DNA from: an uncultured Gammaproteobacteria bacterium
GTDB lineage: Bacteria > Patescibacteriota > Microgenomatia > UBA8517
Direction of reading: 5' to 3'
DNA length: 47,839 nt
Assembly: GCA_964427735.1 (NCBI GenBank)
Contig: CAYRUS010000003.1
Location: 1-47,839 of the forward strand
This document shows positions 22,225 through 27,876 of this stretch, one piece after another. A program made the position numbers and the translations under genes. Numbering within the stretch: position 1 is the first letter of the stretch; every line of letters begins with the position of its first letter. Below the pieces are notes generated by a model that did not search any database, had not been told where the DNA came from, and saw only the letters and a list, made by a program, of their open reading frames with translations.

Positions 22225-22292
22225 CACAATATCACAGCTCTGATATTGTGCGACTATCTTTAGGGAGTCTCCCTGTAAGTACGTCGCACATT
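22225..22292. repeat. Compound inverted-repeat element carrying two copies of the GTCGCACA(A/T)T motif
   Basis: CACAATATCA-cagctc-TGATATTGTG (22225-22250) is a perfect 10-bp stem. It overlaps GTGCGAC (22248-54), which pairs with GTCGCAC (22283-89). That pair encloses CTT.AGGGA-gtc-TCCCT..AAG. The element lies between the convergent ppa gene and 22328..23095. Confidence 0.6.
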
Positions 22293-25842: not shown

Positions 25843-26793
25843 CTAATCCTTACCACCTTTACCATGGAATGATTCATGGATTTCCTTTAAGTGTTTATGA
25901 GTAACATGAGTATAAACTTGGGTAGTTTGAATATTCTCATGACCAAGCATTTCCTGGACACTTCGAATATCAGCCCCTGCCATAAGTAAATCAGTAGCAA
26001 AAGAGTGTCTGAGTATATGAGGTGTAGCATCTACTGGCAGACTAACCTTTTTAGCATACTTTTTTATCATTCTCTGCACAGAACGCGGAGTCAAGCGAGA
26101 TTCTTCATCGGTAATACTTGGGTTAACTCGTTTATCGTGTCTTATAAATAAGGGTTTAAAATGGTCTTCTCTTGCTTCCAAATATTTTGCAATCCAATCT
26201 GCTGCACGCCTTGATAAAAACACTACTCTTGCTTTACCACCTTTACCAATAACCCCAAACTCACGCCTATTTAGGTTTACTTTATCTCTATCAAGCTTAA
26301 CCAGTTCACTAACACGCAAACCGGTTGAAAAAAGCACTTCTAATATTGCTTTGTCTCTTTTTCCGCTTAAGTTAGATAGAGACGGTGCATTCAAAAGCCT
26401 GTCAACTTGTTCACCGTTCAAATATTTTATATGTCTATCTTTCACTTTAGGCAAATCGATTTTTTCGGGAGCCAAGACATCATAATCATTTTTTGTTAGC
26501 CATTTCATAAATGAGCGAAGTGAGATGACATGATATCCTTGAGTTTTCTTAGATAGAGTACCTCCTTTTCCATCATCCAAACGCGATAAATACAATCTAA
26601 AATCCCGTACAACATCTAAATTGATATCTTCTAATGACTTATTAGGATGATTATCACTCATCCAATGATTAAAACGAGACAAATAATGTTTGTAATTTCT
26701 TATAGTTAGGGGAGAGGAACCCTTTTCAACTTCCATATATTTAAGGAAGTCATCTATTTTAGTAGATAATAACGCATTAGACTGGGCAGACAT
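25843..26793 (-). CDS. Tyrosine site-specific recombinase, XerC/XerD-like
   Basis: N-terminal SAM-like core-binding domain (FLKYMEVEKGSSPLTIRNYKHYLSRF). Catalytic contexts GLRVSELVKL, HILRHSFAT and GHENIQTTQVYTHV. Confidence 0.85.
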   Translation of the reverse strand: MSAQSNALLSTKIDDFLKYMEVEKGSSPLTIRNYKHYLSRFNHWMSDNHPNKSLEDINLDVVRDFRLYLSRLDDGKGGTLSKKTQGYHVISLRSFMKWLTKNDYDVLAPEKIDLPKVKDRHIKYLNGEQVDRLLNAPSLSNLSGKRDKAILEVLFSTGLRVSELVKLDRDKVNLNRREFGVIGKGGKARVVFLSRRAADWIAKYLEAREDHFKPLFIRHDKRVNPSITDEESRLTPRSVQRMIKKYAKKVSLPVDATPHILRHSFATDLLMAGADIRSVQEMLGHENIQTTQVYTHVTHKHLKEIHESFHGKGGKD

Positions 26794-26808
26794 CTTTATA
26801 CTGTATTA

Positions 26809-26837
26809 AGTCTACAATGAATCTAAATTTAAGTCAA
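26809..26837 (-). promoter_or_regulatory. Possible promoter of the recombinase gene (TTGACT-17 nt-TAGACT)
   Basis: Minus-strand -35 TTGACT (plus-strand 26832-26837) and a weak -10 TAGACT (26809-26814). A copy of the TACGTCGCACAAT motif sits 1 nt upstream of the -35. Confidence 0.3.
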
Positions 26838-26838
26838 T

Positions 26839-26851
26839 ATTGTGCGACGTA
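26839..26851. repeat. Single copy of the 13-bp motif ATTGTGCGACGTA (reverse complement TACGTCGCACAAT)
   Basis: Exact string read in sequence. Related copies lie at 22243-22254, 22280-22292, 27441-27453 and 27458-27469. Confidence 0.7.
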
Positions 26852-27441
26852 TAATTTTTTATATGATTTCTTTAATGCAGTTTGCGTCATTGCTTTTAAA
26901 TTTTTTTAACTAACTTAAAAATTAGAATCCAATAATATTTGTGAATTAAAAAAATTAAGTTGGACCAAAAAAATATAAAAACTTTTCTGGTGTTATTATT
27001 TATCAGAATATCAATAACAAATCTTTAATTAGATATTTCAACGAATCAATACCACTACAAACAATTACTATAATTTTACATATGTATTTGAGCCTAATTT
27101 GTGTATATTTCGTGCCTACGACCTCACTAGAGCCATTCTAAGAGACTTTTATATTTATAATGACTAACTACTCATCTAAGTACACTTTATATCCATATAT
27201 GTTAGGTAAATAAAGGAGATTCCGAAAATAATCAGTCCGGGGGAGTCATTTTACTTATAATAGAGTAGCACGAGCCTAATCGTGCCTAGCAATAAGGCAC
27301 AAAAATATTTAGTTAAACACCATAAAAGAGTAGTATTTAAAAATTTGAGTTTAAAACGACAAGTCTAGGTAGCAAGTTAAATATAAATATAAATAATAAA
27401 TTTAATTGAAAATATAACCCTACCCTTATCAAATTGTTCTT

Positions 27442-27469
27442 ACGTCGCAAAAGTATTATTGTGCGACAT
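27442..27469. repeat. 28-bp imperfect palindrome with 11-6-11 geometry (candidate tyrosine-recombinase/dif-like site)
   Basis: ACGTCGCAAAA GTATTA TTGTGCGACAT. The arms match in 9 of 11 positions when one is reverse-complemented. The site lies ~650 bp upstream of the Xer-like gene inside an ORF-free gap. Confidence 0.4.
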
Positions 27470-27876
27470 TGTGTTTTTTATCGTTCTATAGATCTTTTGA
27501 TTGTTACAGAAAAATATTTGATTCATTCAAGAGGATAAAACGATAAATGCTTTCATTAATTTAAGATTATATCTAATGTAACATTTATCCTCTTCGGTGC
27601 AGTATATGCTTCATTTTTTTAATAGTTAGTATTACTTCTGTAAGGAAGTTTGTCCACAATTCTCCTCAAAACTTACTATATCTAACTATATCATCTAGCC
27701 TTAAATGATACTCCGTGTTCTTTTGTTTGGATAATTAATAATATTATTATGGGATGTGAAAACACTCTTTGTTTAGTGTGAAAATATCCAAAATTAACCT
27801 ATAATTATTATGGGGTATTTTATATCTCCTCTCTCTCCTCTAGCTTTTATCTATAAAAATTTTATCTAAAGCTTTA

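Follow-up and report, generated by a model that had tools for sequence, protein, structure and literature searches.

A dif-like, probable Xer site with a large one-sided array of conserved motifs on a Microgenomates chromosome

Introduction

The XerCD/dif-FtsK-KOPS system of Escherichia coli and most bacteria brings together two paralogous recombinases, XerC and XerD, a single-copy, non-coding 28-bp site, dif, made of two 11-bp arms around a 6-bp centre, the gamma domain of FtsK, and G-rich words, the FtsK orienting polar sequences (KOPS), that converge on the site. Other lineages use a single recombinase, as do XerA with the dif site of the archaeal Thermococcales and Sulfolobales, XerS with difSL in streptococci and lactococci, and XerH with difH in Helicobacter and Campylobacter; the plasmid sites cer and psi carry, beside an Xer core, accessory sequences that bind accessory proteins. 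Bacteria of the candidate phyla radiation (CPR) are uncultured and, to our knowledge, nothing is known about the segregation of their chromosomes; a full-text literature search, in the texts it reached in part, found no published description of dif or Xer in CPR bacteria. Here we describe a locus of this kind in a 47,839-nt stretch of DNA (contig CAYRUS010000003.1 of assembly GCA_964427735.1; the window), in which a 1083-bp gap between two genes, at positions 26794-27876, holds a dif-like 28-bp palindrome, the core, next to a gene for an Xer-type tyrosine recombinase. The window is the entire contig C3 of a three-contig, 1.06-Mb, 99.5%-complete genome (G000), whose placement in the Microgenomates of the CPR comes from the labels on related records.

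The locus shares with the XerCD/dif system the 28-bp, 11 + 6 + 11 build of its site, the occurrence of that site as a single copy in non-coding DNA, an FtsK with a gamma domain and converging G-rich words, and its core equals E. coli dif at 15 of 28 positions (hand count; the comparison sequence is the K12 row in Table 1 of PMC2731167). Unlike that system, it has one recombinase rather than two paralogues, its arms are nearly alike, its site lies 67-110 kb from the switch in GC3 skew (the GC skew of third codon positions, genes of each strand handled separately) and 37-45% of the genome from dnaA, and the site is linked to xer, with a conserved array of motifs spanning about 400 bp at one of its sides. 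With archaeal XerA/dif it has in common a single recombinase, a 28-bp dif-like site and a recombinase that passes the XerA cut-off and, with the Sulfolobales in particular, a site close to the recombinase gene with a conserved flank on one side only (PMC2958812); it differs in its host, a bacterium that has the FtsK missing from archaea, and in the further scores of its Xer, 258 bits with the XerD model and 254 bits with that for XerC. XerS and difSL likewise form a module of a single recombinase linked to its site, but difSL is 31 bp long with an 11-bp centre, against 28 bp and 6 bp here (PMC5357621 and PMC2731167), the XerS model gives our recombinase 140.6 bits where 267 are required, and cargo genes separate xer from the site in many of the relatives. 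XerH/difH resembles the locus in its single recombinase and two imperfect inverted arms and departs from it in arm sequence, as given in PMC5357621. The same source describes cer and psi as an Xer core with a few hundred base pairs of conserved non-coding DNA on one side; our locus is chromosomal and its motifs (a DnaA box, GTGAAAA and ACTATATCA) are different ones, and the likeness is one of layout.

Results

The core occupies positions 27442-27469 of the plus strand and reads ACGTCGCAAAA GTATTA TTGTGCGACAT, an 11-bp arm, a 6-bp centre and a second 11-bp arm; 9 of the 11 arm positions are complementary by hand count, making the whole an imperfect 28-bp palindrome. It lies in non-coding DNA and is single in G000, even when up to 6 substitutions are allowed. 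Its agreement with E. coli dif stands beside the 14 of 28 positions that archaeal dif has in common with bacterial dif sites, according to PMC2958812. When 40 related genomes were queried by BLAST with the whole gap, strong matches (E below 1e-4) were obtained in 27 and covered only about 28 nt, query positions ~648-677, equivalent to 27441-27470 of the window; matches elsewhere in the gap were weaker. The core is single in 26 of these 27 relatives, with G010 adding one weak second match, and a pattern search recovered it in three of the five remaining genomes searched, for a total of at least 30 of the 40 relatives. Across the loci of 19 relatives the central 24 nt of the core vary by at most 2 substitutions, and the bases just outside are unrelated. 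A scan with one genome per species found the core in at least 120 stretches, from records labelled Woese-, Gottesman-, Levy-, Curtiss- and Collierbacteria, some of these labels being obviously automatic.

The gene to the left of the gap (25843-26793, minus strand) encodes the lone housekeeping tyrosine recombinase of the genome, a 316-aa Xer-type protein with the Pfam Phage_integrase domain and a SAM-like N-terminal domain. It passes the cut-off of the NCBIfam model XerA_Arch (NF040815; 231.9 bits, cut-off 220) and stays below those for XerD (TIGR02225; 258.1 bits, cut-off 329.6), XerC (TIGR02224; 254.1 bits, cut-off 335.15) and XerS (140.6 bits, cut-off 267). An FtsK comprising alpha, motor and gamma domains is also encoded in G000. 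The sole further tyrosine recombinase of the genome is found at C1:679874; it lies about 2 kb from a 788-aa open reading frame (ORF) with a weak FtsK/SpoIIIE-like match, and the region holding both (C1:677683-680353) may be an integrated mobile element.

To the right, the locus is bounded by a membrane-protein gene of the DUF5656 family (Pfam PF18900; 27877-28650, minus strand), followed by yebC, also on the minus strand; gyrB and gyrA lie upstream on the plus strand. The order xer, site, DUF5656, yebC recurs in all 20 relatives whose loci we fetched with 5-kb flanks, gyrA preceding xer wherever the flank reaches that far; one of the 20 xer matches is partial and sits beside a run of N. In a wider set of loci from the genome_contigs collection (77 evaluated for motifs, 75 for DUF5656 and 72 for xer), a convergent DUF5656 gene lies 242-1117 bp after the site in 68 of the 75 with enough flank, and xer lies no more than 1.3 kb before the site in 24 of the 72; the distance in the window is 650 bp.

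The core also marks a change in the polarity of G-rich words. We counted GGGNAGGG, which we take to be the E. coli KOPS consensus, as plus-strand to minus-strand copies on each side of the site. In G000 the word favours the leading strand, as defined by GC skew, by 36:4. Six relatives gave data for both sides of the site. In G010 (site at 577284) the counts are 9:1 on the left and 3:9 on the right, the words that bracket the site being 570110(+) and 578552(-); in G017 (site at 650634), 4:0 and 2:5, bracketed by 645019(+) and 651535(-); in G026:C1 (site at 65039), 3:1 and 1:11, bracketed by 56696(+) and 68492(-); in G029:C16 (site at 83607), 6:1 and 2:6, bracketed by 61869(+) and 85591(-); and in G023:C2 (site at 136873), 13:1 and 3:6, bracketed by 135238(+) and 137069(-). 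For G008 (site at 236353), the first 500 kb yielded, among the matches listed, 26:7 and 12:19, with bracketing words at 234758(+) and 241691(-). In six of six relatives the site is thus flanked most closely by a plus-strand word on its left and a minus-strand word on its right, and the pooled counts are 61:11 on the left against 23:56 on the right (Fisher p = 4e-12, the G008 contribution being limited to the matches listed). For G010 the split is significant at the site (p = 0.004) and not at the GC3-skew switch (p = 0.57).

The window itself has five plus-strand copies of GGGNAGGG to the left of the site and one minus-strand copy, the C-rich flank CCCTACCC (GGGTAGGG on the minus strand; 27418-27425), about 17 nt to the left of the core; the flanks of relatives have a pyrimidine-rich tract at equal distance. 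Four G-rich words taken together give 9:2 on the left of the window's site and 0:3 on the right (p = 0.03). Over at least 100 kb on either side, G-rich words run with opposite polarity and meet at the site, and in E. coli such a junction defines the zone of dif activity, according to PMC2731167. A separate search for the most skewed 6- to 8-mers of G000 returned ordinary purine-rich words with biases of 0.63-0.84, which name no KOPS.

On this evidence, we consider it probable, with some reserve, that the core is an Xer target serving chromosome dimer resolution. Several observations weigh against that reading and are gathered here. GC3 skew is negative throughout C3, with no switch at the site, and the skew-defined terminus of G000 lies at least 67 kb away, if C3 abuts the start of C1. 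In G010, a chromosome of 1274 kb, the site is at 577 kb and the GC3-skew switch at about 690 kb, some 110 kb apart; in G017 cumulative skew stops rising at the site, near 650 kb, yet GC3 skew stays weakly positive. The distance from site to dnaA is 37-40% of the genome in three single-contig relatives, and, judged by GC skew, the site does not fall at the terminus as would be expected of dif. The core has a GC content of 11/28 (39%, hand count) against 35% for the genome; in proteobacteria the G+C content of dif is lower than that of the chromosome (PMC2731167). Both flanks of the core are pyrimidine-rich on one and the same strand, which simple convergence fails to explain, and the window has no GGGNAGGG copy to the right of the site. 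The relatives tested for polarity are kin that share gene orientation near the site, so their counts are not independent. Other G-rich words, including a backwards control word, are skewed as well and flip in the same neighbourhood; because of this, the specific guide word for FtsK cannot be pinned to GGGNAGGG. Finally, our search of viral contigs found no phage or element with a matching full site.

For the position of the site there is a precedent in the Thermococcales, whose dif lies 120-142 degrees from oriC (PMC2958812). Two further features of the skew landscape deserve record. In the single-contig relative G017 (530-810 kb), a drop in GC3 skew at 530 kb takes it from about +0.3 down to some +0.05, after which it is weakly positive as far as the stretch was read, and no clear skew-defined terminus appears within the 400 kb examined. 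Between the site and the skew switch there is a zone of 67-110 kb (C1:1-40000 together with C3 in G000; 577-690 kb in G010) in which the G-rich words point to the site and the sign of the skew is that of the other replichore.

The gap that contains the core had been described from the letters of the window as ORF-free and extremely AT-rich, and both properties hold: its longest ORF on either strand has 37 aa under table 11, so that none reaches 40 aa, and its GC content is 26.5% against 35.1% for the window. Read with an alternative code (table 4, TGA as sense), its stop-to-stop frames are at most 65 aa long, and we rejected that possibility. By a crude ORF call (60 aa or more), the gap is the largest spacer in the window, where the median is 30 bp, and ranks second of 1101 in the genome; the same call gives two other ORF-free spacers of at least 1 kb in G000, C2:231975-233321 and C1:736607-737633. 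Contigs from four runs of two other studies match the parts of the gap they cover with 0 differences and no joints (these are contigs, not reads), and because independent contigs are identical and free of joints, the gap is not an assembly artefact. No tRNA or tmRNA was found in it. The earlier note offered four candidate explanations for the gap, of which recombination or dimer resolution is borne out by the single-copy dif-like core beside an Xer gene and the polar G-rich words converging on it; a structured non-coding RNA and an origin or terminus find no such backing, and a scar left by a mobile element could account for no more than the left 650 bp. The repeats and hairpins listed in that note are present in the DNA, the hairpins barely outdo shuffled sequence (z -1.9 to -2.7), and promoter-like and terminator-like matches in the gap are not enriched over shuffles. 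The degree to which other genomes conserve the palindrome and the motifs on its right clearly exceeds chance.

These motifs fill the interval from the core to DUF5656 (27470-27876), which is non-coding and 258-630 bp long in 19 of the 20 fetched relatives. Nearest the core is an 11-bp inverted repeat, AAGAGGATAAA / TTTATCCTCTT, at 27529-27594, whose arms lie at 27529-27539 and 27584-27594, the first of them one base from the position reported earlier, and which has folding z values of -1.9 (plus strand) and -2.7 (minus strand); relatives have pairable purine and pyrimidine tracts nearby, judged by eye, with no support from ensemble folding. There follow, on the plus strand, a DnaA-box-like TTGTCCACA (27650-27658), one mismatch from TTATCCACA, which occurs exactly at the aligned place in 18 of 21 sequences; a ACTATATCA / AACTATATCA motif (27685-27693), present as 2-4 tandem copies in some lineages; a pair of (C/T)GTGAAAA boxes separated by about two helical turns (27755-27784), the sole such pair in the genome; and a near-palindrome, CCTATAAT...GGGTAT, with a TATAAT hexamer (27798-27818), which forms a conserved alignment block. 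A duplicated string noticed before, ATTATTATGGG, is indeed present at 27743-27753 and 27804-27814. Last comes a CT-rich tract (27825-27841), on the minus strand a G-rich polypurine run reading towards the core, which keeps its place in relatives; in G023 it holds a GGGNAGGG word, 165 bp from the site.

The array belongs to one side of the core. Among the 77 wider loci, the DnaA box occurs after the core in 43 and before it in 1, GTGAAAA in 66 and 15, and ACTATATCA in 48 and 0, and in locus L030, where 2.4 kb of genes have been inserted ahead of DUF5656, the motifs remain beside the core. Their order depends on lineage, the DnaA box standing before or after the GTGAAAA pair, and several relatives have a CGTCGCA word, similar to an Xer arm, directly next to the first GTGAAAA box. 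We examined one other cluster of ACTATATCA and TTATCCACA, at C1:518.3 kb, and set it aside as a coincidence in what looks like coding sequence. Taken together, these comparisons suggest that 27470-27876 is most likely a set of protein-binding DNA motifs beside the core.

The left side of the locus is of another kind. From 26850 to 27417 runs an AT-rich spacer with no similarity to relatives beyond the half-site described below; it contains small hairpins (z about -2) and the GAGCCTAAT-N12-CGTGCCTA strings, found where they had been reported, at 27090-27118, with their echo GAGCCTAATCGTGCCTA at 27272-27288, one base from its reported place. The strings at both places resemble GAGCCTA, GAGGCTA and GTGCCTA words, which in relatives precede AACTATATCA to the right of the core, and may be a displaced copy of that rightward motif. 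In the relatives, the interval between xer and core measures 444-3838 bp and holds genes that are unrelated from genus to genus (L024-L043), among them a HAD-like family of about 140-245 aa in five loci, a Nudix protein, a methyltransferase and several orphans; it seems to tolerate or attract gene insertion. A tblastn search with 13 cargo proteins of relatives found no pseudogene remnant in the gap (no E below 1). The proposal that the gap is the scar of a lost mobile element holds for the left 650 bp at most, which are unconserved and house unrelated genes in other genera, and not for the core or the right side.

Next to xer the spacer gives way to a putative promoter on the minus strand, TTGACT, 17 nt, TAGACT (26809-26837; 9/12 in a consensus scan), within a region whose TGTCAATATTGTGCGAC block is common to relatives. 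Abutting its -35 element is an Xer half-site, TTGTGCGAC, a copy of one core arm (26840-26849, minus strand) and one of 4 CGTCGCA[AC]AA words in the genome. The three GTCGCA-type copies remarked on in the earlier note are this half-site and the two core arms (27444 and 27462). In 18 of the 19 relatives that could be evaluated, a motif resembling the arm is found 24-137 nt from the start of xer, regardless of what separates xer from the core, which suggests that the half-site may be an autoregulatory operator of xer. Arm-like words also occur in a long hairpin of the window, at 22245-22290 in the convergent spacer between the pyrophosphatase and NAGPA-like genes; its outer stem is formed by TTGTGCGAC ... 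GTCGCACA and its inner stem by AGGGAG/CTCCCT, and it may be a terminator that resembles the arms by chance or a further place of Xer binding.

The variable interval, the arm repeated at the xer promoter and the position of the site off the GC-skew switch would also suit a palindrome that is an Xer target with another job, either an attachment site that captures mobile DNA or an operator or inversion site that controls neighbouring transcription. So would the arrangement at locus L101, where the core (1301-1324 of that locus) and both GTGAAAA boxes have the reverse orientation with respect to xer, DUF5656 and the remaining motifs, which suggests a local inversion. We judge this alternative unlikely. 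The cargo genes are flanked by no second full or hybrid site. Viral contigs searched with the full core pattern gave 0 matches, and those searched with half patterns gave 4 and 47, none of which continues into the second arm, with mismatches at no fewer than 7 of the 28 positions; some 15 of these half-matches fall in one conserved, coding-looking stretch, and the totals are near chance by a rough estimate. The core is near-invariant across the class, and convergence of G-rich words over at least 100 kb per side is expected for dif and not for an attachment site or operator.

A second alternative concerns the conserved right part, which could encode a small or cis-acting structured RNA transcribed on the plus strand from the TATAAT hexamer or, on the minus strand, starting at the palindrome and crossing the core in the direction of xer; the motifs would then belong to the RNA or its promoter. 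The highest-scoring promoter-like match of the gap, GTGAAA, 16 nt, TATAAT (10/12), does lie here on the plus strand, at 27778-27805; A-to-G changes in the CCTATAATTATAGG palindrome would keep G-U pairs on that strand, and the pyrimidine and purine tracts after the core are pairable with sequences that differ by genome, both judged by eye; and the Rfam models for 6S and small signal recognition particle (SRP) RNA match nothing elsewhere in G000. The spacing of the GTGAAA-TATAAT match is not kept in relatives, however, and Infernal with Rfam found no match at the gathering score in the window or in the loci of 14 relatives, the matches in the gap with E up to 10 all being noise (snoR31, MIR390 and DUF805b, at E of 1.8 or more). 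RNAalifold returned an empty structure for 52 right-block sequences, 52 core-proximal regions have a mean folding z of -0.6 on both strands, as shuffled sequence would, tblastx-type similarity is spread over several frames of both strands, and the order of the motifs varies between lineages; we found no consistent perfect-stem hairpin after the core and no RNA sequencing run that contains the stretch. An RNA of this kind, one of the explanations proposed in the earlier note, is in our estimation distinctly unlikely. Nothing in our scans of the gap resembles 6S or SRP RNA, and we rejected both as candidates. Elsewhere in the genome, an RNase P RNA is recognisable at C1:406721-407103, at 84.7 bits against a gathering score of 100.

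It is very unlikely that the gap is replication-related, as a secondary origin or as a site of the datA or DARS type that titrates or reactivates DnaA. Such a role would account for the conservation of TTATCCACA, which 18 of 21 sequences have at the aligned position and which recurs in 43 of the 77 loci of the wider set, given that exact DnaA boxes number only 15 genome-wide; the region is AT-rich, and in some lineages the tandem ACTATATCA copies are about one helical turn apart. There is, though, a single consensus box, with the window's copy mismatched and a second one-mismatch box on the other strand, and the classical origin is elsewhere: C1 562.5-564.1 kb holds dnaA, three exact DnaA boxes and a cluster of one-mismatch boxes, and cumulative GC skew has its minimum at C1 ~550-564 kb. 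Because dnaA, the box cluster and the skew minimum are on C1, the gap is not oriC. GC3 skew changes sign on C1 at about 560 kb, the origin, and at about 40 kb, and not at the gap, and in G010 and G017 the skew on the left of the site is positive, contrary to what an origin would show. The skew analysis called for earlier thus places the origin, at C1 ~563 kb, and gives the gap neither that role nor that of the terminus.

That the gap is decaying junk, what is left of a vanished gene or element, its repeats arising by chance, can hardly be maintained, for although the left 650 bp are unconserved and their repeats and hairpins near chance, tblastn finds no cargo pseudogene remnant, the 242-1117 bp of non-coding DNA between core and DUF5656 are kept in 68 of 75 loci of very compact genomes, and the conservation of the core and rightward motifs across a bacterial class refutes this explanation for the core and the right-hand part.

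Discussion

We take the gap to be the Xer/dif locus of a CPR chromosome and to represent a known system in a variant with one recombinase, set apart by an unusually large conserved motif array and by its displacement from the skew-defined terminus. The sequences establish the anatomy of the site, its uniqueness, conservation and synteny, the converging polarity of the words, and that Xer and FtsK are encoded. We infer binding, recombination, the part of FtsK and the roles of all the motifs from the arrangement of the DNA and its conservation, and on this basis propose that two Xer monomers would bind the two 11-bp arms of a core and that the two cores of a chromosome dimer would be synapsed. 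FtsK, guided by G-rich words whose polarity on either side is directed at the site, would bring the cores together and trigger strand exchange across the 6-bp centre, so that the dimer is resolved. The motifs in the 400 bp to the right are most likely bound by accessory or regulatory proteins, in the manner of the accessory sequences of cer and psi, and the 650 bp to the left would be a free spacer that serves as a cargo slot in other genera. Bound to the half-site at its promoter, Xer would probably regulate its own gene as well.

A more far-reaching proposal, which we regard as speculative and rather doubtful, is that the core, the DnaA box, the GTGAAAA pair and the extra half-sites would form a class-wide nucleoprotein assembly of about 450 bp that couples Xer recombination or xer expression to replication or to the state of the initiator, with the site and its polar words uncoupled from the point where replication forks meet, 6-9% of the chromosome away.

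Our findings have practical as well as biological consequences. A 28-bp site that is invariant across a class is a landmark that can be read from sequence, with which contigs can be oriented and ordered and assemblies checked, and the core offers biochemists a concrete substrate on which a CPR recombinase could be tested for the first time. That the site is offset from the GC3-skew switch is relevant to the old question of whether dif is placed by the meeting of forks or by FtsK-guided segregation. If it is true that the motifs act on recombination, a DnaA box and its companion motifs beside dif would represent a new layer of Xer control.

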